A stretch of 64,000 bases of DNA from Methanobacteriota archaeon (GCA_011526375.1 WTIT01000089.1:3337-67336), one strand, 5' to 3'; counted from the stretch's first letter, positions 28,303-63,684 are shown. A program made the numbers and translations. The notes: generated by a model not told the origin, from the sequence alone.

Positions 28303-31300
28303 GTGGCTAGTCTGCAAGAAGAACACATGGCAAAGTGCTTAGACATCGCTTACAAGACTAACATTCCTAAACAACAACGCAAGGCCAAAGTAGCCAAATC
28401 TCCAGATTGGCAGATTATGGAAAAGAAGTGGCGTAGTATTCTCACATTGGCATTGGATGAAACCGAAGTACCAGGAGATGAAGATGATGGTAATGCGCCT
28501 AGACCTAGTCGGATGATGCGTCGCAGGGGGCGAGGTGCAGGACCGAAATCTGCTGTTGATTGGCTGCCGCAGAGTGACGAAATCGTAACAGATAGTAGCG
28601 AATCTGATGCATTTAGACTAGCAGTCTTGTTGATTAACAAGCAATTGAAACGCGGAGATTGGAGTGACGATCTAACAACGCTAGAAAACTCAATTCGTGA
28701 AAAATGCTTAACCAATGGTGTCGATGCTATTTGGCAAACACTTGGACAGAAAACGGATCTTCTTGCCCAGTTTGTGGCATTCCCAACTGCTAAAACAAAG
28801 TCAAAATCAAGCAAAAAAGTTGATGTTTCGATTGGCAGGATTGATGTTTTCGACAACGATGAATTAGCGATTGCAATAAGTGGTCTTTCTTCATTATGTA
28901 CTGATGCTGCTCAACAAATAGCGATTCAAAAGGTTCAATCTCAACTCTCTGCTAAACGAAGTTTAGAGGTAAGTAATAGTCTGCTTGAACTCAAAGGTAG
29001 TGCATCAATTATTTCTGTTCTATTAGCCATTTCTAGCGGCTCTGAAGCGTCAAAAGCAATCAAAGAATTAGCCAAAGTAGATAAGGAACTGGCAGAGGAA
29101 TTTGCTGACTTAAATCGTCTTATTGAGGGAGAGATTAAAGATTGGAAGGCCAGTACAAATGCAGGAGATAATGGATTAGCAAAGGCAAGAGCCAGATATG
29201 CATGGCTGAATTTCCCTGAATCCGTGGCGCAACTTCCGCCCACTGAGATAGCAGACGGGATTGAGATTCTTGAAGCAATTCCTAATTCTCAGGTACAAAT
29301 TCAAAATCTAAAGTGGTTGTACCTTTCTGCTCTCGCCAAATCAGGTGATAGTAAACAGGCTGCAGATATATTGATTTCCAACACCCTTGACCATTCGATA
29401 GAAATCGAAAAACTGTACGATTTAATTCGCTCACTGGATTCAAAGCAAGTTGATGAGTGGCTAATCAATCAAATGACATCTTTAGATGAGGGAGCATTGT
29501 TGTATATCTCTAATCACAAGGGGAGTTCTCTTGATTTGAAGAATGAATGTTACAAGCATATTCAAGACATTGGAGGAGAAGCATGGGACGAATCATCAGT
29601 GCAGGCAGTTGAAATTTTCGCTCAAAAGTTAGAAATTCGACGTCTAAGTAAAATACTGACAAATAACGATCTTGCTCCAATCTCACATCCATATGAAGCA
29701 TTGTTGTCATATCATATTTTAGCAACAAATAGTGAACAAGATTTGTGGGACAAATTCGTCGAAATTAGGCGACAAGCACTAACATCTATTCACAGTACAG
29801 AGGCCCCTGAATATCTTTCACCAATGGCTCAAAGCCTAATCATGCTTATGGAAGGCAACAAAGTAGATGACGACCCGTTTACAGTATTGCCGAAAAAAGC
29901 CTATCAAGCGCTGAAACAAGCCCGCAATGCTCTGAAGCAGGGTGGTACAGGCATTGCTTCAAGAACGCATATTGAACATCTGGAAAAGAGTTTGGAGCAA
30001 GCTAATTTGTCTAATTTAGAAGAAAATCTTTTGACAGTGCTAATTGCTACTTTGAATCTTAATCAGGCAACTATCTCACTCCAACATGGTGAGGCTGATG
30101 ATGAAATTTTCACCTCACTAAATCAATTAGTGGTAGGTTCTGATATTCCTACTAGATTGGTCCGGTCAGTTAGACAACTGGTCTTCGAACACGACATTGG
30201 ATTGGAACAATTAGTTACTTGGTATCAACAAAACAATCCTCTTTCGCCTTGGCATACACTTGCAAGAGCTGCGCTGTTTGCCCAGAATAAAGATGAGTTA
30301 AACGCAGCAAGAGAGTATCGAAGGGTTGCTGAAAGCGGAGAATTCGATTTCGAACATTCAATGGTTCTGTATCGCAAGTCAATAATTCACCTTGCACACG
30401 CTGAGCAGTGGAAAGAGGCAGTAGACTTGCTTGATAGTCAACCAGCCCTAAGAACTGCTATAACCAAGCGTTTCCAACTTTATCTTAGAGTCTCATTTAC
30501 TGCCAGTAATCAAAAAACCAACGAAGCAACGCAATTGCTGAAAGACTTTGTCAGGCGAACCAAGCAAGTCCAAGAAGAGAATGTCGATGGTGAGATGGTT
30601 GAGAAAACAATCACCTTCTTTGCTGAAGATGAACTTGATAATTTGCGGAATTACCCGTTTGAACACTCTAGAGAATTACCAGCCGAACCATTTTCTGGCA
30701 GAGTAACAGCGGCATTGACATCAGTTCAAAGGAATAAGCGCAGAACACGGCATGGGTTTGACGGCAGATTCCGTAATGAAATGTTACAAAATCCACCTTC
30801 TATTATGGAACTTTATGATATTGCAAGAGATTCTGCAGATAAGAATCCGATTGACGGGTTGATGTATTTGGAAAGAGCACAAAATTCGGGCAAATTCTCA
30901 ACCTCTCAAATGAAACGTTTGTACGACACTGAAAGAACCCTCTTTGCGACACACAAGCAACAGATCCCAAACTCATCTAGGCGTTATTTGAAGAATTTGG
31001 CACTCCCTCCACTCGTGATAGTAGACACTAATATCCTGGTTGATGCATTAGTCGATAAGATAGCCCATAGTTTGGAATTAGCGAGTGAAACAAGCTTAGA
31101 CTCATTTGAGCATGATAACTTCCACAAGGTGCTTCTAAGTCGCGCCGATGCTGGCAGAATTAATCTCTGGCTGCCATCAATAGTCAAACATGAAATTAAT
31201 GAATTAAGCAAGCGGCATAACAAATTGAAAGCCAAGTTTGCCTCTTCTTTAGTTAAACCGGAGATTTTAGATTCCGTGTTTGAGGATGACAAAATCGCCA

Positions 31301-31695
31301 AACTCGTTGGTGAAATTATTGCAGAGTTCAATCGCTGGAAACCAATGGATATTCATCTTGAGAAAGACGCACTTGAATCCGAATACGTTGATGAAATAAC
31401 CGAATTCCTGGCTGAATATGTTGAAATTTATGAAGAACTTACGGCGATGAAAGTTGCTAGAGAACCAAAGCAAAATAGGACAAAGATTGGTGATAGTAAG
31501 GTCTTCCCAGAAGATGCAGACAGGCAAATAATGGCTATTGTTAAGCGTCTAGCATCCCAATCTTTGGAAGGCCTTGGAAGCATACTCGTTGCTACAAGAG
31601 ATGGTGATTTCACACTAACAGCAAGAGCATTTGAGGAAAGATTTGGCTATGGTATAATCAAGAATAGCCAAATGCTCAACGCTTGGTTAAACTAA
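28303..31695 (+). CDS. Large (about 1130 aa) alpha-helical repeat protein with C-terminal PIN-domain nuclease
   Basis: C-terminal roughly 230 aa carry the PIN acidic quartet context: IVDTNILVDAL, KHEINEL, EDADRQIMAIV, ATRDGDF. The N-terminal 900 aa are helical/TPR-like. Start is GTG 28303 (inside the AGGAGGTG) or ATG 28327. Confidence 0.65.
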   Translation: MASLQEEHMAKCLDIAYKTNIPKQQRKAKVAKSPDWQIMEKKWRSILTLALDETEVPGDEDDGNAPRPSRMMRRRGRGAGPKSAVDWLPQSDEIVTDSSESDAFRLAVLLINKQLKRGDWSDDLTTLENSIREKCLTNGVDAIWQTLGQKTDLLAQFVAFPTAKTKSKSSKKVDVSIGRIDVFDNDELAIAISGLSSLCTDAAQQIAIQKVQSQLSAKRSLEVSNSLLELKGSASIISVLLAISSGSEASKAIKELAKVDKELAEEFADLNRLIEGEIKDWKASTNAGDNGLAKARARYAWLNFPESVAQLPPTEIADGIEILEAIPNSQVQIQNLKWLYLSALAKSGDSKQAADILISNTLDHSIEIEKLYDLIRSLDSKQVDEWLINQMTSLDEGALLYISNHKGSSLDLKNECYKHIQDIGGEAWDESSVQAVEIFAQKLEIRRLSKILTNNDLAPISHPYEALLSYHILATNSEQDLWDKFVEIRRQALTSIHSTEAPEYLSPMAQSLIMLMEGNKVDDDPFTVLPKKAYQALKQARNALKQGGTGIASRTHIEHLEKSLEQANLSNLEENLLTVLIATLNLNQATISLQHGEADDEIFTSLNQLVVGSDIPTRLVRSVRQLVFEHDIGLEQLVTWYQQNNPLSPWHTLARAALFAQNKDELNAAREYRRVAESGEFDFEHSMVLYRKSIIHLAHAEQWKEAVDLLDSQPALRTAITKRFQLYLRVSFTASNQKTNEATQLLKDFVRRTKQVQEENVDGEMVEKTITFFAEDELDNLRNYPFEHSRELPAEPFSGRVTAALTSVQRNKRRTRHGFDGRFRNEMLQNPPSIMELYDIARDSADKNPIDGLMYLERAQNSGKFSTSQMKRLYDTERTLFATHKQQIPNSSRRYLKNLALPPLVIVDTNILVDALVDKIAHSLELASETSLDSFEHDNFHKVLLSRADAGRINLWLPSIVKHEINELSKRHNKLKAKFASSLVKPEILDSVFEDDKIAKLVGEIIAEFNRWKPMDIHLEKDALESEYVDEITEFLAEYVEIYEELTAMKVAREPKQNRTKIGDSKVFPEDADRQIMAIVKRLASQSLEGLGSILVATRDGDFTLTARAFEERFGYGIIKNSQMLNAWLN

Positions 31696-41025: not shown

Positions 41026-44000
41026 ATGACGGGCAGTTCCAAGGCTTATGATGGGAGAGCCATTGCTACGCTGTTGATTTTATTGATGACCTTTTCAATG
41101 GTGCCAATTACCAATGCTAGCGCCGAAGATACGGGTAATCTCTTTCATCTACAAGCACAAGACATTGAAGCATCATTTGATAGCAACACCGAGTTAACGA
41201 CAATTACTTGGCGCAACATTGACAGCCTGGACGAGCCATCGGCACTTGACAACTTTTACAACTCTGTTTACAAAATCTATCGACACACAGAGCCAATCAA
41301 CCAATCAAATGTACAAAACGCAACCTTGATTCATCAAGTTGATGCTTGCGACAGTGAAGCATATGCGGTCAAATATTTGTGTCTAGGCGGAGCCAATGGT
41401 TCACACCCCGGTCATAGTTACTCTTACCTTGTGGCACCGGGCACCAATGATTCCTTTTACTATGGAATTACGACAACTATAACCGACCAAAGTAACACTG
41501 AAACAACCTACGATTCCCTCATTTCAAATGAATCATCAATATACGATCCAATTGTTGAAGTTACAACTCCGGTTAGGACTCCATATAATCTGATGGCAGA
41601 TTTTGACCCAACCACTAGTATAACCACACTCTCTTGGATTAACTACAACGACATCTTCTATGTTCTCCCGGAAACAGGCCCAGATGCATATCAAACTCGT
41701 ATTTGGATGTCAACTCAGCCAATTACCAGAAGTTCAGCAGGGAGTTTGTTTAGTTCCATGTCTCCAGTGGCCCAACTTATCTCAGGAGTAGATAGTTATG
41801 AAATATTTATTCCACAGGATACGGATCGAGATGTCTACTACGCTGTCACATATCTCTTACCAAATTATTTCGGCGCTGGTCAAGATTATGAAGATATAAG
41901 ATTCCTATCTAACAATGCCTTGGATTCGACCATTGCTGAAGATAACATGCCCGCTAGTCCAGTAACTTCAGTCAATACATTTTTTGCATCAGACTCGCAA
42001 ACAGGTAGCGGCACAACTACGATAACTTGGGCTGATGTGTCAAGCGAGGAAGGCGAATCGTATGCAATTTTCAGCTCAGGAGAACCATTCAACAAAACCA
42101 CGCAGTTCGGTGCAACACAGATTGCTCTAGTAGATGAAGGAATTTCACAATTTGAATATCAAGTCCCGATAGGAAGGCTTGGAACGTCATATTATTGTGT
42201 TGTAGTAATCGACTCAAATGGAATTTTTGATGAAGATATCCAACCATTCTCTTGTAATTCATTGTATGAAGACGCTTTCTACAACTGGACTGCAGAACCG
42301 ACGAATGTTATGGCGACATTTATTGGAAATGCTGAAACTCACATAACATGGAATGACCAACTCGGTGCAGAGGGAGAGGTGTATCACATTTGGCGATCGA
42401 ACTATCTAGTTGCTGGTAGCCAATTTAGTGAGAACGCAACCGTATTCTATCAAGGAACTGTCACTGATGGCATTCAACAGTTTACCGCACAAGTACCACC
42501 AGAAGTAGATAGAACATCGTTTTACTTTGTAACTAGTGAAGCACTATATCAGCACAGTGCAGGTCCATACCATTACACTAAGTTAATTCAAAATTGGTTT
42601 GGGCCAGTATATGAAGATACGAGAACCCCGACAGCTCCTAGAATTAACGAAATAGACGTTGAAGGGGAACTTTCAATGGTAACCATTGAATGGTACAATG
42701 ACCAACAATTAGACGGTGAAAAGTATTCGATATGGCAACATGAAGGCGCTCCGTTTGGAGAAGACGAGGATGAGATTTCCATCGTAAGTGAGGATAATGG
42801 CTGGACGCTATTTGATGGCGACATCCTTGATACAGGCTCGTTACTAACAGAATTCACATTCACCAAAAATTATCAAATTCCGGATGATGTTGAGCGAAAC
42901 CTTTGGTATGCTATCACCGTTGAAGATGCTTATGGAAATCAGAACATAGAAGCCTTCCCAGGCTCTGGTGGTAATTCTCTCAAAGTCAAAGAAGATACTA
43001 CGCCACCTACAGCAACATATGAATTATACAATGACGTTGGCGAACTTTACCTCAGCCCATCCCTTGTATCGGGCAGTTACAGTATCAGACTTTCAATAAA
43101 CGAGTACCTATTTAGCAATCCTACTGTTGATTTAACTACCTCCAGTGGTGGTAAAATAACCAACGGACCTCGTCAGATGTTAATGTATGCTGACAACCTA
43201 CTAGATCCAACAAAAGGCCCTGAATATTATCACAATTTCGATATCTCTAATTCAGTTTCTGCTGGTTTGATTACCATTACGGTAGACATGGTTGATGAAA
43301 GTTTTAACAGCCAGCAATTAAATTGGACAGAGCGAAGTTTAGATGCGCAAAATCCGTTCCTAACGGTTTATTCTCCGGCCTCAGCAGGAGATGGTTCAAA
43401 ATACCTCTATGGCAATAAAATCAACATCAATGCAGGTGCGACCGATGATGTACAAATTTCTCTTATCCAGTACAAATTCACCTACAATGTTGGTACAGGC
43501 GCTCAATCGGTAACTGCATGGACTACACCTGAAGATGCGCAGGATGTTTATGGCGATGGTAGTTCATTCGTATTCAACGAAGAAATAAGTGCAGGTAACT
43601 TCGACCCAGGAACTCATGCCGTCACAGTCAGAGCGATAGATTCTGCTGGTAACGAGGTAATCAAACAAGTTCAATTCATTGTCGATTATTGTCGAAATAG
43701 ACTTGATGGAACAACGGTTTGTAATTACGAAGAAGATTTGAAGCCCGAACCAGACCCGATAATTGTTGAACCATCATATTCGGACCCACCATATGTGTTC
43801 GTCTGGGTTTCATCGGGAATTGCATTTATCTCAATTATCCTGATGCTGTTTGTCATTAGTGCGGGAATGAAAGGCCCGAAGAAAAAGAAATCAGACGATG
43901 AGTATGATGACGATGATTGGATGTCAGAGTTTATCGGCACCACTCAAGATGTAGATATGGACTCAATTACCAATACGACTCAACCTGCACCTGCAGAGGA

Positions 44001-44274
44001 ATCTAAAGAGGTTCCAGAGATTGAGGAAGAGGAAGAAGATCCGTTCTCGGTTAATGTAGTGCAAAGAAAGGCTAGACGCACCAAGCCAAAGGCTAAGCCA
44101 GAACCCGAACCAGAAGAAGATGAAGATGATGCTTTCTTTGGCTTAGATGATGACGAATTCGAGGAAGAAGAGGTTGAGGAAAAGCCTAGACCAAAGCGCA
44201 AGGTAGGACGACGAACCGCACCTAGAAACGCACCTAAACGCCGTCCAACAAGACGAAGCAAATCCGAAGATTGA
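41026..44274 (+). CDS. 1082-aa type-I anchored surface protein with five Fn3-like modules, Ig-like domains, TM anchor and block-charged cytoplasmic tail
   Basis: Signal peptide ATLLILLMTFSMVPITNASA. Modules marked by ITWRNIDS, LSWINYND, ITWADVSSEEGESYAIFSS, ITWNDQLGAEGEVYHIWRS, IEWYNDQQLDGEKYSIWQH. TM VFVWVSSGIAFISIILMLFVISAGM, then a KGPKKKK.. tail. Confidence 0.85.
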   Translation: MTGSSKAYDGRAIATLLILLMTFSMVPITNASAEDTGNLFHLQAQDIEASFDSNTELTTITWRNIDSLDEPSALDNFYNSVYKIYRHTEPINQSNVQNATLIHQVDACDSEAYAVKYLCLGGANGSHPGHSYSYLVAPGTNDSFYYGITTTITDQSNTETTYDSLISNESSIYDPIVEVTTPVRTPYNLMADFDPTTSITTLSWINYNDIFYVLPETGPDAYQTRIWMSTQPITRSSAGSLFSSMSPVAQLISGVDSYEIFIPQDTDRDVYYAVTYLLPNYFGAGQDYEDIRFLSNNALDSTIAEDNMPASPVTSVNTFFASDSQTGSGTTTITWADVSSEEGESYAIFSSGEPFNKTTQFGATQIALVDEGISQFEYQVPIGRLGTSYYCVVVIDSNGIFDEDIQPFSCNSLYEDAFYNWTAEPTNVMATFIGNAETHITWNDQLGAEGEVYHIWRSNYLVAGSQFSENATVFYQGTVTDGIQQFTAQVPPEVDRTSFYFVTSEALYQHSAGPYHYTKLIQNWFGPVYEDTRTPTAPRINEIDVEGELSMVTIEWYNDQQLDGEKYSIWQHEGAPFGEDEDEISIVSEDNGWTLFDGDILDTGSLLTEFTFTKNYQIPDDVERNLWYAITVEDAYGNQNIEAFPGSGGNSLKVKEDTTPPTATYELYNDVGELYLSPSLVSGSYSIRLSINEYLFSNPTVDLTTSSGGKITNGPRQMLMYADNLLDPTKGPEYYHNFDISNSVSAGLITITVDMVDESFNSQQLNWTERSLDAQNPFLTVYSPASAGDGSKYLYGNKININAGATDDVQISLIQYKFTYNVGTGAQSVTAWTTPEDAQDVYGDGSSFVFNEEISAGNFDPGTHAVTVRAIDSAGNEVIKQVQFIVDYCRNRLDGTTVCNYEEDLKPEPDPIIVEPSYSDPPYVFVWVSSGIAFISIILMLFVISAGMKGPKKKKSDDEYDDDDWMSEFIGTTQDVDMDSITNTTQPAPAEESKEVPEIEEEEEDPFSVNVVQRKARRTKPKAKPEPEPEEDEDDAFFGLDDDEFEEEEVEEKPRPKRKVGRRTAPRNAPKRRPTRRSKSED
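41146..42976 (+). repeat. Five tandem Fn3-like modules of the same type as in the 2790-aa protein
   Basis: Each module has a [IL][TSE]W strand, a Y-x-I-[WFY] strand and a [YF]Y[ACF]V[TV] strand. Boundaries are approximate. Confidence 0.6.
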
Positions 44275-48715: not shown

Positions 48716-49990
48716 ATGGCGTCTTGGTCGACAGAAGATTTGTGCGGCCCGGATGGCGAAGACTGGCGAGTTCCAGCGAAAGAACTTGAGACGAGATTAG
48801 AAAATCTGAGCCATAGGCTTGTTGAGGCAAAAATCCCCGGGGTTCTGATTCAAAATCCAGTCGACTTGTATTATTTTGCAGGCGGTAGACAAAACGGTAC
48901 ACTATTCGTTCCCGCCGCTGACTCAAATGCAAGCGCTTCTGAAGGTGGAGGCGGTGCAACTTTTTTCGTCAGGCGCTCAGTAAGCCGAGCAAGGTTTGAG
49001 GCCGGAGAAGGAGATTCCCCGCTGTCTATTCAGAAATTCCCTAGTCTACGAGTTTTCGCTGAAACTTTGTCTAATTTGGGTCTTGAAAACGCACCAGGGC
49101 TGCAATACGGTGAGATTCCCGCAGATTTTGCCAATAAGTTCCGCTCTGTTTTGGCTCCTTTAGGGGATGCAGCGGATTGTACACAGACCATCCATCTTCA
49201 ACGAGAAGAAAAGTCTGATTGGGAAATAAACATGATGAGAGAAGGAGCAGTTATTCAACAGCAGATGTTTGAGGCAGTTGAAGCCTCGATCAAAATCGGC
49301 GCAACGGAGTTAGAAATAGTTGCTAGTGCTGAAGAGGTTAGTCGCCGTAATGGGTTTGGTGGCAACGTTCAGATGAGGCGATTCCCCCTTCAATGTGATA
49401 GAGCAGTGATAGTCTCCGGCAGAGCCGGAGGGATACCCTCATTCTTTGATTCTGCGATAGGGGGAACAGGCGCACATCCATTGGCTGGTATGGGTTCTGG
49501 TTTCAATAAGTTACAAGCAAATCAACCAATCTTAGTCGACCTTGTTCACGTTCATCGTGGTTACGTCGTCGACGCAACGAGGATGTATAGCATAGGCGAG
49601 TTGCCAGAGCCCTGGGAGCAAAGACTGTCTGATATGGTAGAGGTCAGTAACAGTGTAGTAGATTCTCTTGGCCGTGGAGATGATTGTTCCAAGGCTTGGG
49701 AGGTTGGCTCACAATTGGCCGAATCGATGGGGCACAGCGAGCACCTTATGGGCATGAAACCAGACCAGAGTAAATTCCTTGGACATTCTGTTGGTCTTCA
49801 GCTTGATGAATCACCAGTAGTTGCCAAAGGTTTCGATAGACCATTAATAAAAAATGGAGTAATGGCTATTGAACCAAAATTAGTTTATTCTGACGGCAGT
49901 ATCGGTATTGAAGATACATGGCTGCAAACTAGTGAAGGATTAGAAAGGTTAACTTTACATAACAAGGAAGAATTCTTGACAACGTTGTAG
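48716..49990 (+). CDS. M24-family metallopeptidase (Xaa-Pro aminopeptidase/creatinase-like)
   Basis: Creatinase-like N-domain plus a pita-bread C-domain with VDLVHVHRGYVVDATR, GHSVGLQLDE, MAIEP, IGIEDT metal-ligand contexts. Confidence 0.75.
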   Translation: MASWSTEDLCGPDGEDWRVPAKELETRLENLSHRLVEAKIPGVLIQNPVDLYYFAGGRQNGTLFVPAADSNASASEGGGGATFFVRRSVSRARFEAGEGDSPLSIQKFPSLRVFAETLSNLGLENAPGLQYGEIPADFANKFRSVLAPLGDAADCTQTIHLQREEKSDWEINMMREGAVIQQQMFEAVEASIKIGATELEIVASAEEVSRRNGFGGNVQMRRFPLQCDRAVIVSGRAGGIPSFFDSAIGGTGAHPLAGMGSGFNKLQANQPILVDLVHVHRGYVVDATRMYSIGELPEPWEQRLSDMVEVSNSVVDSLGRGDDCSKAWEVGSQLAESMGHSEHLMGMKPDQSKFLGHSVGLQLDESPVVAKGFDRPLIKNGVMAIEPKLVYSDGSIGIEDTWLQTSEGLERLTLHNKEEFLTTL

Positions 49991-50000
49991 GTGGTCGATT

Positions 50001-53000
50001 ATGGGATACCTCAAAAACAAGTCAGTTCTAATTGTGATTGTCTTGTTACTACCACTTTTTTCTCAAGCGAACACAATGGGAGAAGAGGCTAATGAAACAA
50101 ACCAAGAATTTCACCCTGTGTCTAATTTCTATCCATTTGACGGAGCAGGCCATCATCCGTTGAACAGCGATTACAATAAAGTGGGTTCAGATTTGAGTAG
50201 ACTCAGTCCAAATGTAGGCTTGTATGAAGACAATTATGTCTCCAGAGTAGATTCACCAAGCGCCCGAGAAATTAGTAATCAACTATGTATTGAGCATGAA
50301 ACGGTTTTAGATGAAAACGGCCTTTCAGATTACAACTGGATTTGGGGGCAATTTCTTAGTCATGATATCTCGTTTGTGTTAACTCAGAATGGTAGAGTTG
50401 ACGGTTCTCCAGAGTCGATGTTTATACCGATACCCGAAGGAGATGCTTGGATGGACCCGTTTTCAGTTGGGTCATTGATTATGCGCATGGACCGTTCAGT
50501 TTACAATACATCAACATCAACAGCAGAGATTCCTAGGGAGTTTCCTAATTCGATTACTGGGTGGCTAGACGGCTCCCATGTGTATGGTTCATCAAATGCA
50601 ACTAGTGAATGGTTACGCGCTAATGAGGGGGGTAAGCTCAAAACCTATGATGGATTTAATGGTGAATTCTTACCACTTGCGGATGATGATGATGACAGCA
50701 CACCGCCAGTAAGTTTTGCAAGTTTTTCACCATCTAAGCGATATGTTGCAGGAGATCCACGGGCAAATGAACATGCAGCCTTAACCGCCATGCATGTTCT
50801 ATTTGTAAGAGAGCATAACCGAATTGCTGATGAAATAACTAGCAGTAACCCCGCAATGTTGGATGAAGAGGTATTCCAACTTGCAAGGAAGATAAATACC
50901 GCTCAGATGCAGTACATCACCTATTACGAGTATCTTCCTTCATTAGGGGTAATATTGCCTGAATATACAGGATTTGACCCTTCAGTCGACCCGCGTATTT
51001 CTAACTCATTTGCTACCTTAGCATTTAGAATGGGGCACTCTCAGATAACCGAATCAACCTTGAGGCTGGATACTGAATACCGTGATTTTTATCTCGGCAA
51101 TATTAGTATGGCTGATGGATTTTGGAATCCTGATAGACTTAACTCGGAGGGTGGCATTGCTCCAATTTTTAGGGGAGCAGCAATGACTACACAGGCCGCT
51201 AATGATATGAAGTATACTGATGCTTTGAGAAACTCCATGTTTGGAGACCCTGGGTTTGGTGGCCTAGACATGTGTGCGATTGATATACAGAGAGCCAGAG
51301 GGCACGGACTTCCAGATTACAATACATTGAGATCTTCTATAGGACTAGATAGAATAGACAATTGGTCAGAAATAATTGACGGTGACAGTACTGACCTTGA
51401 AAAGCTACAACAAGTCTATCCAAATATTGACAATTCCGATCCAATTATGGGTATGTATGCAGAAAAACATCTCACTGGTAGTGTTTTGGGTGAAACTATG
51501 CATGCGCTGCTGCATGACCAGTATCTTAGACTACGCGACGGGGATATTCTTTACTTTGAGAATGACTTAGAACTTGAGCCTTATATCTCAGATATTAGGC
51601 AATCAAGCCTAGCCAATGTTATTTTGAGAAATACCGAAATTACTTCAATACAATGTGATATTATGTATGCCGCTGATAGATTGAATGATTTGGATTGCTA
51701 CTCTCCGCCACTGGAGAAATATCCACCATCAGTAGGTGGAACGGTAATTATTGATTCGTTTTTCTCTAACTCAGCCGATTTAGGTGTAACTTTTACTGAA
51801 GTAACAGAATCAAGTGGGCTATCTTCAGTTGTTTTTGATGAGAAGTACATGTGGTCTTCATTCGGACCCACATTATCTTTAGGAGATTGTAATAATGATG
51901 GGAATGAAGATATTTGGCTTGGAGCATCTTACGACCATATAGGATTCGAGACAGGAGTTCCAGAATCACATTCTCGGACTTATCTGCTCATTGGTGACGG
52001 GAGAGGAAACTTTGAGGATTTCACAGAAGAGGCAGGCCTGTTAAATCTCAATTCTACTGCATTTAGTGCAACTTGGGTTGATTATGACAACGATGGAGAT
52101 CTTGATATTTATCAGTCAAATTATGGCATAATAACCGATTTTCAAGAAAGTCAAACGAATTTAACGAGAAATACACTATATGCTAATGATGGAGATTGTA
52201 AATTTATTGATGTAACTCTAATTTCAGGTTTAGGTAATGGGGGCTATTCAACAACTAGTTCATGGGGTGATTACGATAATGATGGTGACCTCGATTTATA
52301 CTCAGCAAATTTAGGTATAGTCAACGATTTTGAAAAATCCGTTTTTCCTCAGTCCGATGTATTTTATCATAACATGTTAGCAGAAACAGGTGAAGCATTT
52401 TTTGAGGATTATTCAACTGAAGTCGGCGAAGTGTATGGCACTTTCCTCGAACCAGATATTGAGGACGAACTTAGTTTTAGTTCAGGTTTGTCATTTGCGT
52501 TGAAATCAGTTGACAAACCCTCTGCGCAAGCGTCAATTTTACCTAATCTTGAGGATGTTGATTATGGTGATAAATTGAAGGGCACCGGAGCCACATGGGC
52601 ATTGCTATTTGTTGACATGAATAGCGACGGAGGCGATGATTTGCTAATTGGCTCAGATTTTGGTATTTCACCAATGTACAAAAACATGCAAAATGGTGAA
52701 TTTTTATTGTATACCCAACAGTCTAGGGTGGATATACCAGGAACTGCGATGGGCTTTGATGCAGCAGATATGGATGGCGACTTAGACTTAGATTACTGTC
52801 AGTCAAATTTTGGACCAAATTATTTATTCCAACAAAATGGTGATTTAGAATTTGATAATGTTGGCCTAGAAAACGGAATGAGTACAGGATATGCGTCTCA
52901 AAGTGTTACTTGGGACTGCAATTTCATAGATGTTGATTTGGACGGCGACCTTGATTTATGGTTTGGTTCAGGCAACATTAATCCGTTTACGTCCTTTTCT

Positions 53001-53600
53001 CCCAATACTATTTATCTAAACGATGGAGATGGTAACTTCTTGCAAGGAATTGGCAGTGAAGTAGAATTATTTTCTCCAATTGGTAAAACGATGGGTTCAG
53101 TTTGGGCAGATTTTGATAATGATGGCGACCTTGATGTTATTATCTCGCAATCAAACACAGGGGTTCACTATTTTGAAAATAATGCAGCAGATAGAAGTGA
53201 TAAAAACTGGATTGGGATAGATGTGTATCAACAATATACTAACGATTCAGCTAGTACTATTGCTAATGGTGCAATTGTTGATATTTACTTCTCGAATGGG
53301 AAATCTGTAAGACAAGTAGTAAAAATTGGCAGTGGTTATGCAGGCAGCAAAGATACCACAATCAACCTTGGAATACCAGAAGGTGAAAGCCTAACTAAAG
53401 TTGTAATAACATGGAAAGATGGCACCGTCATCGAATATCATGACCTTGAAATTAATCAATACCATACAATTCAACCCAATGACAGCTTTAATCAACAAGA
53501 ATCTCTTTCGACACAAGATGATAGTTCTCTAGTTACCTTATCTGTAGTGTTAATTACGATACTAATTGTGTTTGTCCGTTTCTTCCCTAGGCAGGACTGA
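50001..53600 (+). CDS. Animal-type heme peroxidase domain fused to FG-GAP/VCBS beta-propeller + UnbV/ASPIC-like domain (CRTAC1-like), C-terminal TM anchor
   Basis: Signal peptide. Peroxidase motifs WGQFLSHDISF (distal His), ITGWLDGSHVYGSS (Ca site), RANEHAALTAMHVLFVREHNRIA, LAFRMGHSQ (proximal His). Seven DxDxDGDxD FG-GAP repeats. NWIGIDV...GSGYAGSKD ASPIC-like region. C-terminal LVTLSVVLITILIVFV. Confidence 0.85.
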   Translation: MGYLKNKSVLIVIVLLLPLFSQANTMGEEANETNQEFHPVSNFYPFDGAGHHPLNSDYNKVGSDLSRLSPNVGLYEDNYVSRVDSPSAREISNQLCIEHETVLDENGLSDYNWIWGQFLSHDISFVLTQNGRVDGSPESMFIPIPEGDAWMDPFSVGSLIMRMDRSVYNTSTSTAEIPREFPNSITGWLDGSHVYGSSNATSEWLRANEGGKLKTYDGFNGEFLPLADDDDDSTPPVSFASFSPSKRYVAGDPRANEHAALTAMHVLFVREHNRIADEITSSNPAMLDEEVFQLARKINTAQMQYITYYEYLPSLGVILPEYTGFDPSVDPRISNSFATLAFRMGHSQITESTLRLDTEYRDFYLGNISMADGFWNPDRLNSEGGIAPIFRGAAMTTQAANDMKYTDALRNSMFGDPGFGGLDMCAIDIQRARGHGLPDYNTLRSSIGLDRIDNWSEIIDGDSTDLEKLQQVYPNIDNSDPIMGMYAEKHLTGSVLGETMHALLHDQYLRLRDGDILYFENDLELEPYISDIRQSSLANVILRNTEITSIQCDIMYAADRLNDLDCYSPPLEKYPPSVGGTVIIDSFFSNSADLGVTFTEVTESSGLSSVVFDEKYMWSSFGPTLSLGDCNNDGNEDIWLGASYDHIGFETGVPESHSRTYLLIGDGRGNFEDFTEEAGLLNLNSTAFSATWVDYDNDGDLDIYQSNYGIITDFQESQTNLTRNTLYANDGDCKFIDVTLISGLGNGGYSTTSSWGDYDNDGDLDLYSANLGIVNDFEKSVFPQSDVFYHNMLAETGEAFFEDYSTEVGEVYGTFLEPDIEDELSFSSGLSFALKSVDKPSAQASILPNLEDVDYGDKLKGTGATWALLFVDMNSDGGDDLLIGSDFGISPMYKNMQNGEFLLYTQQSRVDIPGTAMGFDAADMDGDLDLDYCQSNFGPNYLFQQNGDLEFDNVGLENGMSTGYASQSVTWDCNFIDVDLDGDLDLWFGSGNINPFTSFSPNTIYLNDGDGNFLQGIGSEVELFSPIGKTMGSVWADFDNDGDLDVIISQSNTGVHYFENNAADRSDKNWIGIDVYQQYTNDSASTIANGAIVDIYFSNGKSVRQVVKIGSGYAGSKDTTINLGIPEGESLTKVVITWKDGTVIEYHDLEINQYHTIQPNDSFNQQESLSTQDDSSLVTLSVVLITILIVFVRFFPRQD
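51880..53140 (+). repeat. Seven FG-GAP/VCBS Ca2+-binding repeats
   Basis: GDCNNDGNEDIW, WVDYDNDGDLDIY, WGDYDNDGDLDLY, FVDMNSDGGDDLL, AADMDGDLDLDYC, FIDVDLDGDLDLW, WADFDNDGDLDVI. Confidence 0.8.
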
Positions 53601-53638: not shown

Positions 53639-54427
53639 ATGGGCGCTAAGCCGTATTCCCCTGGCCATATTGGAGCAGTCGCTGCAAACTATACACAAAT
53701 GAGAATTTCAGGCGCAGTGAAACAACAACTCGTCGAACTCTTGTGTGAAGAATTAGATCGCTTAGTGCCACAGATGGAATCCGAAACCTTAGCCCAAGAC
53801 CCAGAAAGAAAAACCCTTGACGATCCTCATCGTACGCGATTAAATTACAACCGAACTAGAGAGTTGATGATTGACAGAATTGCTAACATCGAATCGGTTG
53901 GTTCTGCTGCCGTTCAAGCAGGTATCGAACACACTGAGCAACACTTGGCTAAGATATTGAAACATGCGGAGGCAGCGGCTGAGAAAGATAGAGTCGGCAC
54001 GATCAAACCACGACATCTAGAAATTGCAGTAACCGGCATGGGTCTAGACAGTGAAGATGATTCAGCCGAATTAGACGTGGTTGAGGAAACTGAAACACTA
54101 GTTGTCGGCCAAGGTGGTGGCGTACTTACTCGCTCATCCTTACTTTCATTAGCTAGAACTCATGCCAAAATGCCAGTAACCGATGATGCTGTTGAAGAGC
54201 TTATCGATACCTACTACATGGTCGTCGAGAAATTAGAGGGCGATATTAGGGCTCATGCACAATTAGGTGGCAACCCAGTCCAATTCATTGAGTCAATCAA
54301 CCGGATGAAGACTCTAATGTCCTTAGGTTGGATGCGTTCAATGTTGATTAAAGCAGCAACTAATGCTCGTGAGAGAGGCTATAAGAGAATCGATATTGAA
54401 CAAATAGTTCATTTAGATCCATACTGA
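53639..54427 (+). CDS. Hypothetical protein, possible tandem (doublet) histone-fold protein
   Basis: Two halves each end in a histone alpha2-L2-alpha3-like string: AEKDRVGTIKPRHLEIAV and ARERGYKRIDIEQIVHL. Each is preceded by alpha1/L1-like ISGAVKQQLVELL and MPVTDDAVEELI. Alternative start ATG 53699. Confidence 0.3.
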   Translation: MGAKPYSPGHIGAVAANYTQMRISGAVKQQLVELLCEELDRLVPQMESETLAQDPERKTLDDPHRTRLNYNRTRELMIDRIANIESVGSAAVQAGIEHTEQHLAKILKHAEAAAEKDRVGTIKPRHLEIAVTGMGLDSEDDSAELDVVEETETLVVGQGGGVLTRSSLLSLARTHAKMPVTDDAVEELIDTYYMVVEKLEGDIRAHAQLGGNPVQFIESINRMKTLMSLGWMRSMLIKAATNARERGYKRIDIEQIVHLDPY

Positions 54428-54485: not shown

Positions 54486-54947
54486 ATGATAGGAGAAACA
54501 GCCCCAGAGTTTACATTGAAAAATACCGCAAAAGAATCGATATCACTGTCAAATTATCGTGGCAAGACTGTGATTTTAGCGTTTTATCCAGGTGCATTTA
54601 CTGGCGTTTGTGACAAGGAAATGTGCGCATTCCAAGATAACATGGCTAAATTAAACGATGCATCTGCTACAGTAATCGGCATTAGTGTAGACTCACCTTG
54701 GGCTAACAAAGAGTTTGCCAGTAAATACAATCTTGAGTTTGAATTACTTTCTGATTTAGACCGCGAAGTCGTCGAAGCATATGACGCAAAATTCGTCGGC
54801 CTAGGTGGCCTAGAGGGGTATGTATCTGCTAACCGAGTAGTAGTTGTCATTGACAAAGATGGCGTTGTACAACACCGCTGGGTTGCTGAAAATCCAGGTG
54901 TTGAGCCTGATTACGAGGCAATCGTCGCGTTGGCACAGTCTCTTTGA
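54486..54947 (+). CDS. Peroxiredoxin (AhpC/TSA family, Bcp/AhpE-like)
   Basis: Active-site motif FYPGAFTGVCDKEMC (P-x3-T-x2-C). 153 aa. Confidence 0.85.
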   Translation: MIGETAPEFTLKNTAKESISLSNYRGKTVILAFYPGAFTGVCDKEMCAFQDNMAKLNDASATVIGISVDSPWANKEFASKYNLEFELLSDLDREVVEAYDAKFVGLGGLEGYVSANRVVVVIDKDGVVQHRWVAENPGVEPDYEAIVALAQSL

Positions 54948-61887: not shown

Positions 61888-63615
61888 TCAGTCAGCGTGA
61901 ATGTCCCCTACATCAAGCCACAAGACCTCACATTTTGCTTTCAATAGCGAGGCAACGCTCGGCTGAGTTCTTCCATTATCGCCATGCACAGTTTCTTTGA
62001 CATAGGTGCCCGATTCACATCGTAGCGTGAACTCTACTTCGACTTCTCCGTCATCGTTTATTTCAATCACCGGTTCATGTACTGTGACAACTTCCCTTCT
62101 GCGAATTAAATCAGCTCGGCGATGAGCGACACGATCAGGAGTTCTTTGTGCTAATTTTGTCCCTTGAAGCGCCATAATTGTGGATTTGATAGTTTCAGCA
62201 TCGGGCAAGTCAAAGCAGGTACTGCCAGGAGCCGGCATAGCCAAAATCCGTTCAATTAGTTCTGCTTTTTTACCGGTTTTTGCAAGGCCGTTTTCGACGC
62301 AAATGGCTTCTAATTCGGCCTTTTTCATCTTGGCAAGATCATCCTCTTGGAAGCCAGTACTTTCAGTGACGATTTCTGTCGGCAGTGGTGTTTTGTTATC
62401 CTTGCGCTTATCGCCCCGTTTAGGACGGCGCTTGCGGGATTTACTATCCTCCTTAGTCAAATCAAGCGGAGCGGTTAGTACGCCATATTCTAACTCATTC
62501 ATCGGCTGTAATCTAAATCGAATAGTGTAAGATTTGTCAGCAGGAGTGTCCTTAATTCTAACAACCTCGCTGCGATTTGAACTCCTCAAATCCGAAACTT
62601 CGATTGAACCATTTGCTTGTTCGTTGATTAGATTCTCGAGTTCTTGATAGTTACAAGACCTAAGTTTTGGTTCTTTTAATTCGATGACGAATGGTCTACC
62701 GCGACCCATGCAACGGACATCAATATCTTCTCTGCCCATACCGTGGAATGAGTGCTCAGGAGACTGTAATACCTCGAGGATTGGATTGCCGATCAAGTCT
62801 TGAACGCTTGAATCATACTGCAGACCAGTGCCATTACACTTCTCACAACCTCTTCCCTTGCAAGCCCTACATGGCCACTTTGTTTGCGGGATTCCGCGCT
62901 CTAATTTTCGATACCGGCCATAGATGTAGTGCGCCCGCACATCTAATTCTACAGTTAGGGTCAGAACATCGATTAAAGCAAGGACATGTGGTTTTTCATT
63001 GACCAATGTAACCCCCTCTAAACGCTTATTCAAATTGCGAGCAATTTCTGTTACCAAACCGGTTTTCAAACCGTCAGAGCCTGTTGCACCGTAACGTTTC
63101 CTTTCAGCATCCTCTTCTTCGATTTGATCCTTAGGAAACCTCGTGCCGAGTTGCAGACGTTTGATTTCATAAGCCTCAATTCGGTCATAAATTATGTCAG
63201 CAAGTAAATCGGCTTCTTCAAACAGATTTTCGCAAAAAGGACAGAGGGAAATATCCTCTCGGATATTAGCCAAGTGACTATTGCCTTCCACGACGCTCTG
63301 CCGAATTTCTTGGCCAGATTCCTCGATGGTCTGTTCATATCGCTTTTTACCGCCGAGTCTGCCCAAACAGAAGTCACAGCATCCGCTTCTTACCAAGTGT
63401 TTCAAACCTGCAGGATTGGGTGCACGAGGGATCTCTTCCATGTGCGTGCCAAGTTGCTCAGGCAAGTCGAGGTCCAACTGCTCAGGCTCTTCTTCTACCT
63501 CTGCTTCTTCTGTTTCCTCATCCCATAGGGAATAGTCGGTTTGTCCAAAGCCTGCGCTGGCATATTTCATCCAATCTTCTTCGTTATCTTCAGGCATTAA
63601 CATCACCACTGCCAT
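61888..63615 (-). CDS. pus10: tRNA pseudouridine(54/55) synthase Pus10 with acidic N-terminal extension and internal basic + SAP-like insertion
   Basis: Zn motifs CCDFCLGR and CPFC, a THUMP-like region, and catalytic HGMGREDIDVRCMGRGRPFVIE and QRTPDRVAHRR. ATG 63615 chosen; the ORF track starts at 63642. Confidence 0.85.
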   Translation of the reverse strand: MAVVMLMPEDNEEDWMKYASAGFGQTDYSLWDEETEEAEVEEEPEQLDLDLPEQLGTHMEEIPRAPNPAGLKHLVRSGCCDFCLGRLGGKKRYEQTIEESGQEIRQSVVEGNSHLANIREDISLCPFCENLFEEADLLADIIYDRIEAYEIKRLQLGTRFPKDQIEEEDAERKRYGATGSDGLKTGLVTEIARNLNKRLEGVTLVNEKPHVLALIDVLTLTVELDVRAHYIYGRYRKLERGIPQTKWPCRACKGRGCEKCNGTGLQYDSSVQDLIGNPILEVLQSPEHSFHGMGREDIDVRCMGRGRPFVIELKEPKLRSCNYQELENLINEQANGSIEVSDLRSSNRSEVVRIKDTPADKSYTIRFRLQPMNELEYGVLTAPLDLTKEDSKSRKRRPKRGDKRKDNKTPLPTEIVTESTGFQEDDLAKMKKAELEAICVENGLAKTGKKAELIERILAMPAPGSTCFDLPDAETIKSTIMALQGTKLAQRTPDRVAHRRADLIRRREVVTVHEPVIEINDDGEVEVEFTLRCESGTYVKETVHGDNGRTQPSVASLLKAKCEVLWLDVGDIHAD

Positions 63616-63684
63616 GGGGCCAACCCCGGTGGAAGCAAGCAATGCTCAAAGCATCTGTTCAAGAAGATGACGGCTGATATTGCA

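Follow-up and report, generated by a model that had tools for sequence, protein, structure and literature searches.

The present study concerns one gene in a 64,000-nucleotide stretch of DNA from a Methanobacteriota archaeon (GCA_011526375.1, WTIT01000089.1:3337-67336), which was analysed at its full length and is called the window below. This gene, a single uninterrupted open reading frame (ORF) at 50001..53600 on the plus strand with a product of 1199 aa, joins a haem peroxidase to a module of the CRTAC1 type, i.e., an FG-GAP propeller followed by a UnbV/ASPIC domain. The main new finding is the linkage of these two modules in two genetic states: they are encoded either as one fused gene or as adjoining separate genes, and one orthologous locus occurs in both forms. 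The peroxidase superfamily itself is known; what appears to be new, besides this fused/split partnership, is a lineage-restricted architecture and, judging from the conserved residues, a natural clade of single-ester haem peroxidases. The explanation that we consider probable for the whole is that the protein serves as a surface ectoenzyme of Poseidoniales, in which a single-ester peroxidase would be carried on a CRTAC1-like module.

Fused and split states of the peroxidase and its CRTAC1-like partner

A word-index search returned 45 clusters (90% identity) with the same architecture as the window protein, 1110-1299 aa in length and 41-100% identical to it, which together comprise about 670 member sequences, including a 100% identical full-length protein on another contig. 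Besides these fused forms, short archaeal peroxidases occur that likewise have Ser or Thr at the haem-ester Asp site (P0063-P0068, 661-723 aa, P0068 being labelled Euryarchaeota), and each of them carries its own signal-like N-terminus and C-terminal transmembrane segment. In all five independent loci with an unfused peroxidase, the gene is adjoined by a standalone CRTAC1-like gene (FG-GAP_3 plus UnbV_ASPIC, 651-790 aa), whose product in L085, L087 and L090 has a putative signal peptide and a C-terminal transmembrane segment as well. At the same time, a peroxidase was found near propeller-only genes in none of 74 loci labelled bacterial (L007-L080, with flanks of up to 8 kb).

The split loci are of two types. 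Type A (L085, L086/87, L088/89 and L092) is a divergent cluster, with the CRTAC1-like gene and the gene for a 160-200-aa membrane protein on one strand, and with a peroxidase paralog (replaced by a 115-aa ORF in L085), the intact peroxidase and a 301-334-aa multi-pass membrane protein encoded on the other. In type B (L090/L091), the peroxidase gene (661 aa) abuts a convergent CRTAC1-like gene (651 aa), and the pair is followed by a fatty-acid hydroxylase gene and then by the riboflavin genes for DHBP synthase, CTP_transf_like, Lum_binding and DMRL synthase. This set of riboflavin genes, with its order unchanged, is also found after the fused genes for P0045 (L084), P0046 (L093) and P0033 (L094), with 60-73% identity between L084 and L090; an orthologous locus at the riboflavin genes is in the fused state in L084, L093 and L094 and in the split state in L090/L091. 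Moreover, the peroxidase half of P0045 is 59.5% identical to the split peroxidase P0063, and its propeller half is 55% identical to the standalone CRTAC1-like neighbour of P0063, compared to 38% for the propeller half of the window protein. An orthologous locus thus occurs in both states, with identities of 55-60% across them, and the two modules track each other; the CRTAC1-like module, encoded beside the peroxidase where the two are unfused, can be regarded as the regular partner of the enzyme. The persistent partnership of the two modules in marine archaea is offered here as a lead.

In a crude neighbour-joining tree, which serves only for the grouping of the Ser/Thr sequences and is too coarse for counting fusions or fissions, all of these sequences group together, with the fused and short forms interleaved. 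Their history may have consisted of a single fusion followed by fission or of several fusions. Additionally, Poseidoniales chromosomes carry the fused gene at two distinct conserved positions: a PGK/M24 peptidase locus holds the members with at least 50% identity to the window protein, and an RNase PH/riboflavin locus holds those with 41-46% identity (L084, L093 and L094), which points to translocation or to independent fusions.

Further observations were made on the type A clusters. Second peroxidase paralogs of 642-647 aa are encoded at L087:6076-8004, L088:6061-7998 and L092:6061-8004. The L087 paralog scores 399 bits with PF03098; it has Asn instead of the distal His (WSEFISND) and no longer possesses the proximal His (FATGSQ). 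Its gene lies immediately upstream of that for the intact enzyme, and the product resembles a membrane-anchored pseudo-peroxidase. The conserved membrane proteins that flank the split cluster (L087:5340-5942 for the 160-200-aa and L087:10076-11059 for the 301-334-aa multi-pass protein) contain no Pfam domains; homologues of both are present in L085, L088 and L092, with 59-72% identity between L085 and L087, and they may be further components of the system, e.g., for haem delivery or maturation. The 262-aa and 275-aa ORFs downstream of the fusion gene in the window were considered as homologues of these accessory proteins and rejected, as no similarity was found.

Active site and haem-ester residues

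Residue roles were read from the published descriptions of CyanoPOX of Cyanobacterium sp. TDX16 (PMC11776367) and DdPoxA, the secreted peroxidase A of Dictyostelium discoideum (PMC5787809), onto residue-level alignments; all coordinates given for parts of the fusion gene are on the plus strand. The distal motif WGQFLSHD (residues 115-122, 50343..50366) contains Gln117, Ser120, the catalytic His121 and the Ca ligand Asp122, with His121 corresponding to the distal His81 of CyanoPOX and His101 of DdPoxA. The segment ITGWLDGSHVYGSS (residues 185-198) includes the distal Ca2+-binding loop TGWLDGS (residues 186-192, 50556..50576), recognised by its conservation across 29 family members, in which Trp188 and Asp190 are invariant and Thr186 and Ser192 are at least 90% conserved. 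In the segment RANEHAALTAMHVLFVREHNRIA (residues 254-276), the motif RANEH (50760..50774) supplies the catalytic Arg254 and the ester-forming Glu257, aligned to Arg199 and Glu202 of CyanoPOX, as well as His258. The proximal haem ligand His346 (51036..51038), located in FRMGHS (residues 342-347), aligns to His294 of CyanoPOX, and its partner Asn411 (51231-51233) aligns to Asn376. Gln117, His121, Arg254, Glu257, His258, His346, Arg410 and Asn411 are invariant across the 29 family members, which are 41-82% identical to the query. The peroxidase landmarks named by the first-pass annotation of this DNA (WGQFLSHD, the Ca2+ site and FRMGHS) all lie where it had placed them.

The same annotation had noticed Ser instead of the usual Asp at the haem-ester site of the D-H-D motif, and the alignment bears this out: Ser120 falls on the ester-forming Asp80 of CyanoPOX and on Ile100 of DdPoxA. 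In the consensus signature X-G-Q-X-X-D-H-D-X, the first Asp is the ester former, and X-R-X-X-E-X is the second signature (PMC4420034). Compared to this two-ester pattern, which is that of LPO, EPO, LspPOX and peroxidasin, the window protein lacks the Asp for haem ring C (Ser120) and retains the Glu for ring A (invariant R254-A-N-E257), so its sequence has the pattern of the single-ester type, a non-carboxylate residue at the Asp site with the Glu kept. The substitution appears as a trait of the whole clade and not as a peculiarity of the window gene, for the distal His is preceded by Ser or Thr in all 45 fused and all six short archaeal forms, and by Asp in all 49 other matches with a readable motif. 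In an exhaustive search, Ser/Thr occupied the Asp site in 8 of 134 motif-bearing proteins among the top 150 matches; five of these eight are short with the same style of hydrophobic C-terminal segment, one is a fragment, and two look different. Since Ser/Thr offers no carboxylate, Glu257 would be the sole residue able to form an autocatalytic haem ester, and the haem is probably linkable to the protein only through Glu257, i.e., by a single ester.

Another observation concerns His258 (50772-50774), which occupies the position of the sulfonium-forming Met243 of myeloperoxidase. All aligned members of the fused family and all archaeal-type sequences that were checked share this residue (RANEH); elsewhere, the position holds Asn or Gln in most bacterial relatives and His in two arthropod sequences.

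The conservation of the active site bears directly on the idea that the protein is a catalytically silent adhesion or structural protein of the cell surface, comparable to peroxinectin or DUOX, with the peroxidase fold as a scaffold. FG-GAP propellers are classic adhesion modules, as in integrin alpha subunits, and this general adhesion role, together with the confirmed loss of one haem ester site and the occurrence of degenerate peroxidase paralogs in related split clusters, speaks in favour of such a scaffold. However, the paralog at L087:6076-8004, which has neither the distal nor the proximal His, indicates that such residues drift once catalysis is dispensable, whereas the catalytic and Ca-site residues of the fused family are invariant or nearly so across 41-100% identity. 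The peroxidase domain is also the best conserved part of the protein (mean identity of 63%, compared to 53% for the propeller and 49% for the UnbV domain, with a variable linker, stalk and transmembrane helix), and the sequence contains no RGD or KGD motif. A silent scaffold is considered very improbable, and we have high confidence that the protein would be an active extracellular peroxidase.

Domain architecture and predicted structure

The reading of the whole gene (50001..53600) as a surface-anchored peroxidase/CRTAC1-like fusion draws on the ORF, the Pfam matches, the 45 clusters of the same architecture and the AlphaFold2 model. The haem peroxidase domain of the peroxidase-cyclooxygenase superfamily (residues 46-554, 50136..51662) was recognised by An_peroxidase PF03098 (421 bits, E 7e-126, profile positions 4-529 of 530), by sequence matches in PDB and by Foldseek. 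The Pfam curated cut-offs are 25 bits for An_peroxidase, 26.9 bits for FG-GAP_3 and 23.4 bits for UnbV_ASPIC, and with a score this far above its cut-off and the two His and the Arg in place, the peroxidase assignment made earlier stands. A variable interdomain linker (residues 557-615, 51669..51845), with a mean identity of 25% and a predicted local distance difference test score (pLDDT) below 50 at residues 580-589, leads to a seven-blade FG-GAP beta-propeller of the Ca2+-binding type (residues 616-1065, 51846..53195, with a variable insert at ~805-860), which is supported by Pfam, motifs and Foldseek. FG-GAP_3 (PF13517) scores 106 bits over five stretches, and seven motifs of the Dx[DN]xDGxxD type, at residues 629, 694, 757, 872, 923, 977 and 1037, fit a propeller of seven blades. 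The UnbV/ASPIC beta-sandwich that follows (residues 1066-1160, Pfam core 1089-1156, 53196..53480) matches PF07593 with 39.8 bits and is all-beta in the model. These scores and motifs, together with the structural match to CRTAC1 (9etn), uphold the earlier view that the C-terminal half combines FG-GAP repeats and a UnbV/ASPIC domain as in CRTAC1.

According to hydropathy, the protein has only two hydrophobic segments, at residues 8-27 and 1176-1195. The first lies in a signal-peptide-like N-terminus (residues 1-23, MGYLKNKSVLIVIVLLLPLFSQA, 50001..50069), in which a basic n-region with Lys5 and Lys7 is followed by a hydrophobic stretch from residue 8 (about 8-20 or 8-27) and then by SQA, after which the putative cleavage site is located. 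This n-region/h-region pattern is common to most family members, a few of which appear N-terminally truncated or extended. At the other end, an acidic Ser/Thr-rich stalk (residues 1161-1175), a single transmembrane helix (1176-1195) and the tail PRQD (53481..53597 in total) were delimited from hydropathy and the model. The values for residues 1177-1195 reach 2.7 and a helix is modelled at 1175-1194, in agreement with the C-terminal membrane anchor proposed previously and of the kind expected for a type I membrane-anchored protein; the stalk, transmembrane segment and charged tail are present in 29 of 29 aligned members, though with low sequence identity.

The protein is acidic (D+E 15.6% vs. 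K+R 5.3%), and all eight of its cysteines are conserved: C630 and C733 occur in 28 of 29 sequences, the other six in all 29. With E values of up to 1 allowed, the Pfam scan detected no dockerin, hemolysin-type repeat or LRR, Ig or vWC domain; it also revealed no EGF-type domain, the UnbV domain being followed by the stalk and transmembrane helix instead. The NCBIfam scan gave no match at E up to 1, and no second copy of the fusion gene was found in the window.

The AlphaFold2 model, built from a 122-sequence alignment, has a mean pLDDT of 87.1 and a predicted TM-score (pTM) of 0.72, with low confidence only in the signal region, in some loops, in the linker (580-589) and in the stalk (1163-1174); the peroxidase fold in this model is predominantly alpha-helical. 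When compared to PDB by Foldseek, the N-terminal half matched CyanoPOX (8s6c; TM-score 0.90, root-mean-square deviation 2.5 A, 36% identity), DdPoxA (6erc; TM-score 0.88) and myeloperoxidase/lactoperoxidase (TM-score about 0.8), and the C-terminal half matched murine CRTAC1 (9etn; E 1e-29, TM-score 0.75). The sequence search of PDB retrieved the same structures: 8s6c (E 3e-107), 6erc (E 2e-69) and, over residues 875-1146, 9etn (E 1e-10). The structural part of the first-pass annotation, i.e., the domains, the intact catalytic residues, the lost Asp ester site and the anchor, is thus supported.

Archaeal origin and rarity

The fusion gene is native to the chromosome of a Poseidoniales (Marine Group II, MGII) archaeon. 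Six full-length matches were found among the GTDB species representatives, all of them in Poseidoniales, “Methanobacteriota” or “euryarchaeote” metagenome-assembled genomes (MAGs), one being a Poseidoniaceae/MGIIa MAG. The locus consists, in order, of genes for a Na/Ca exchanger, a 177-aa ORF, an amidohydrolase, PGK, an M24 peptidase, the fusion protein, a 262-aa ORF, a peroxiredoxin, a 275-aa membrane ORF and XseA, and this order is common to the window, L002-L006 and L081-L083; an archaeal-type Pus10 is encoded in the window as well. The flanking housekeeping proteins are 75-95% identical across Poseidoniales MAGs, compared to only 50-82% for the fusion protein; for the flanking genes of the window, identities of 75-80% were obtained with syntenic genes of Poseidoniales MAGs, the Poseidoniaceae/MGIIa one among them.

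The family name “animal haem peroxidase” and the bacterial nature of the closest non-archaeal relatives could raise the suspicion of an artefact, i.e., an assembly chimera of a bacterial or eukaryotic peroxidase with an archaeal propeller, or a contaminant contig. The chance of this is negligible in our judgement, because the architecture and length recur in 45 clusters, the identical protein lies on another contig, and the flanking synteny is conserved in several independent assemblies. In addition, the GC content of the gene (0.39-0.41) is near that of the window (about 0.42), and the Ser/Thr signature of the clade is shared with unfused archaeal genes. The concern already voiced in the first-pass annotation, that the halves might be separate genes or the contig chimeric, is answered by the same clusters and synteny, in which the two halves form one gene.

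In a HMMER search of 1.84 billion 50%-identity representatives, only two proteins, P0015 and P0045, matched end to end in a single stretch. Other proteins that combine An_peroxidase with FG-GAP are P0119 (882 aa) and P0344 (1041 aa, with a dockerin match just below threshold); both are without UnbV_ASPIC, keep the ester Asp and are read as independent fusions. The next-best peroxidase relatives bear Por_Secre_tail, dockerin or hemolysin-type repeats. Extracellular multidomain peroxidases are thus common in bacteria, and it is the CRTAC1-type partner with the transmembrane anchor that is lineage-specific. Peroxidase genes annotated as “PXDN” (KEGG) were mentioned, in a single sentence of a 2023 survey of MGII antioxidant genes, as occurring mainly in MGIIb (PMC10783094). 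In the literature that we searched, neither the domain architecture nor the linkage with CRTAC1-like genes nor the absence of the ester Asp from the whole clade is described, and a search on MGII with FG-GAP or CRTAC1 gave nothing relevant. The statement that such a protein is unusual for any prokaryote consequently holds for the architecture, with its two full-length 50%-identity representatives, and has to be narrowed otherwise in view of the common bacterial multidomain peroxidases, the P0119 and P0344 fusions and the known PXDN genes of MGII.

Proposed function and alternative roles

In the proposed mechanism, the fusion protein would be exported by Sec and held in place by one C-terminal transmembrane helix with a short acidic stalk, with the UnbV/ASPIC beta-sandwich, the seven-blade propeller, the flexible linker and the haem peroxidase following in this order from the membrane outward. 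With its distal Gln-His-Arg triad, its Ca2+ loop and the proximal His and Asn retained, the peroxidase would be catalytically competent, and the haem, bound by a single ester through Glu257, would have a lower redox potential, as in DdPoxA. DdPoxA, the only characterised single-ester enzyme, which was called unique in 2017, has a low Fe(III)/Fe(II) potential (E0 = -0.276 V) and reacts with I- and SCN- at rates of >1e8 M-1 s-1, with Br- at 15 M-1 s-1 and not at all with Cl- (PMC5787809). Iodide is also the most efficient substrate of CyanoPOX, and aromatic donors are readily converted by it (PMC11776367). From the single-ester likeness to DdPoxA, we infer a lower potential and easily oxidised donors for the archaeal enzyme: ambient hydrogen peroxide (H2O2) would drive the oxidation of iodide, thiocyanate or phenolic/organic compounds in preference to chloride or bromide, with the outcome that H2O2 would be removed at the cell surface and short-lived oxidants made there. 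The choice of a specific substrate, drawn by analogy, is made with low confidence, and it is our guess that the CRTAC1-like module may act as a membrane-proximal platform or as a ligand- or particle-binding module.

Several points weigh against this reading. The signal peptide was judged by eye and from hydropathy only. The analogy with DdPoxA is imperfect, as Ser/Thr differs from Ile, and the clade-invariant His258 beside Glu257 could alter the haem chemistry. The neighbourhood encodes no partner that would generate H2O2. Open seawater typically contains H2O2 at nanomolar levels, with which turnover would be slow; moreover, we know of no function of a CRTAC1/UnbV module in any organism.

A role that we consider unlikely is that of a surface peroxidase which, similar to peroxidasin or ovoperoxidase, mainly cross-links macromolecules oxidatively or breaks them down while the propeller holds them, instead of acting as a halide/pseudohalide oxidase or H2O2 scavenger. 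Such an enzyme could attack envelope proteins at their tyrosine or phenolic groups, or it could act on organic matter, particulate or of high molecular weight, that has been bound. The persistent genetic coupling of the peroxidase to a large putative ligand-binding propeller would suit such a role, as would the ready conversion of aromatic donors by CyanoPOX (PMC11776367) and the M24 peptidase gene located 10 nt before the fusion gene in the window context. At the same time, this M24 adjacency is absent in the riboflavin-locus context, no ligand is known for any CRTAC1/UnbV module, and the retained distal Gln117 has been described as taking part in halide binding (PMC4420034); one- and two-electron chemistry are not told apart by the evidence here.

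Going beyond the surface ectoenzyme that we favour, the peroxidase and the CRTAC1-like propeller/UnbV module might even constitute an obligate two-component extracellular oxidative machine, a proposal that we hold to be rather doubtful. Here, a substrate or the envelope of the cell itself would be caught by the propeller, and environmental H2O2 would enable the single-ester peroxidase to oxidise this catch or iodide in the vicinity.

Neighbouring genes

The M24 peptidase gene (48716..49990, plus strand) has its stop 10 nt before the start of the peroxidase, and the gap contains a GGTGG Shine-Dalgarno-like motif. This spacing and motif make the co-transcription of the two genes probable, in the genomic context of the window type only; the adjacency is kept in L081-L083 and is missing from the riboflavin-locus context. 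The M24 peptidase was rejected as a functional partner, its adjacency being confined to a single genomic context.

The peroxiredoxin gene 0.9 kb downstream, pointed out in the first-pass annotation, is indeed present (54486..54947, plus strand; AhpC/TSA, 153 aa; Pfam AhpC-TSA 126 bits; 886 nt from the fusion gene). The functional hint attached to it is slight, and we regard it as a syntenic neighbour only: the gene points the opposite way to the peroxidase gene in L001, L004 and L006, and it is absent near P0045, P0046 and P0033 in the riboflavin-locus context, so there is no evidence of a dedicated system, and the peroxiredoxin is unsupported as an operon partner. In L083, an AhpC/TSA gene (10495-11022, 175 aa) was observed at the equivalent slot where the window peroxiredoxin has no match at E <=1e-10, and the same slot may hold a different peroxiredoxin type there. 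The scan for promoters and terminators was at chance level (15 found vs. 14.6 expected) and, being of the bacterial type, it is uninformative for an archaeon.

Immediately 3' of the fusion gene, the 262-aa ORF (53639-54427, plus strand) has 80-84% identity between genomes whose fusion proteins are only 50-58% identical and whose PGK proteins are about 75-79% identical, and it is strongly constrained. Its only Pfam match is a sub-threshold histone-fold one (20.5 bits), and no relative was found in PDB.

Farther away in the window, two very large ORFs, of 2790 aa (9783-18155, minus strand) and 1130 aa (28303-31695, plus strand), gave no Pfam match with an E value of 1e-4 or below, and a 1082-aa ORF (41026-44274) has only a sub-threshold DUF4625 match. 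The archaeal Pus10 (61888-63642, minus strand) has a SAP domain behind the catalytic one (residues 434-466 of 583), and another SAP domain lies at the C-terminus of a 726-aa protein (2873-5053, plus strand) that also contains EF-hands; we had not expected this domain to occur twice in an archaeal window, in proteins unrelated to each other.

Significance

In the sunlit ocean, Poseidoniales rank among the most abundant archaea, and they are still uncultured. A conserved, outward-facing haem peroxidase provides a concrete candidate ectoenzyme at the site where MGII cells meet photochemical H2O2, halides and organic matter. The clade-wide change from Asp to Ser/Thr would represent a second natural experiment in single-ester haem attachment, beside DdPoxA. 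Moreover, the fused/split linkage is evidence of the Rosetta-stone type and a functional lead for the widespread CRTAC1 domain pair, which to our knowledge has no known biochemistry. If the two-component machine considered above were real, it would give the CRTAC1/ASPIC/UnbV family, from bacteria to humans, its first biochemical context, and MGII archaea would be a previously unrecognised biological sink for H2O2 of the surface ocean as well as candidate iodide oxidisers. The organisms driving marine iodide oxidation are still being sought (PMC12335899), and an iodide-preferring MGII surface peroxidase would bear on iodine cycling, a link that is speculative.

Comparison with known systems

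By its sequence, the fusion protein can be assigned to the peroxidase-cyclooxygenase superfamily and its C-terminal half to the CRTAC1/UnbV-ASPIC family. The closest solved relative is CyanoPOX, with the same catalytic residues and Ca site; however, CyanoPOX and the LspPOX-type enzymes (Family 6, Zamocky et al. 2015) keep both ester residues (Asp80 and Glu202) and are without the propeller, UnbV domain and transmembrane anchor. With the ester Asp absent and the ester Glu kept, the archaeal clade fails that single defining feature of the two-ester type.

Peroxidockerins, peroxicins, double peroxidases with tails of the type IX secretion system and the P0119 and P0344 proteins are similar to the fusion protein in that extracellular peroxidase domains are fused to Ca-binding or adhesion-type modules. 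Unlike it, the bacterial multidomain peroxidases keep the ester Asp wherever the motif is readable, have no UnbV_ASPIC in their Pfam annotation and possess dockerin, hemolysin-type repeats or Por_Secre_tail in place of a transmembrane anchor, and their identity to the fusion protein is at most 40% and confined to the peroxidase domain. As the accessory modules that define peroxidockerins, peroxicins, peroxidasins and peroxinectins (Families 6, 5, 2 and 3, respectively; Zamocky et al. 2015) are absent, the fusion protein, judged by its domains, belongs to none of these groups.

The C-terminal half shares with the CRTAC1/ASPIC/UnbV family the pair of FG-GAP propeller and UnbV_ASPIC domain, and the standalone archaeal CRTAC1-like homologues, 33-56% identical to the fused C-terminal halves, have the same layout with a putative signal peptide and a C-terminal transmembrane segment. 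Vertebrate CRTAC1 has a C-terminal EGF-like Ca-binding domain, whereas no EGF-like domain was detected by Pfam in the fusion protein, and its module is fused to a peroxidase.

In its mode of action, the fusion protein would, by analogy, be most like DdPoxA. The two proteins share the superfamily, the fold, the distal Gln-His-Arg and the proximal His-Asn, and in both the ester Asp is replaced and the ester Glu kept (Ile100 and Glu236 in DdPoxA; PMC5787809), which allows at most one haem ester; both are also extracellular, the fusion protein being predicted from its sequence to face outward. At the same time, the Asp is replaced by Ile in DdPoxA but by Ser/Thr in the archaeal clade, and the identity is only about 30%. 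Moreover, DdPoxA is a soluble single-domain eukaryotic glycoprotein, whereas the archaeal protein is anchored in the membrane and fused to a CRTAC1-like module of ~600 residues.

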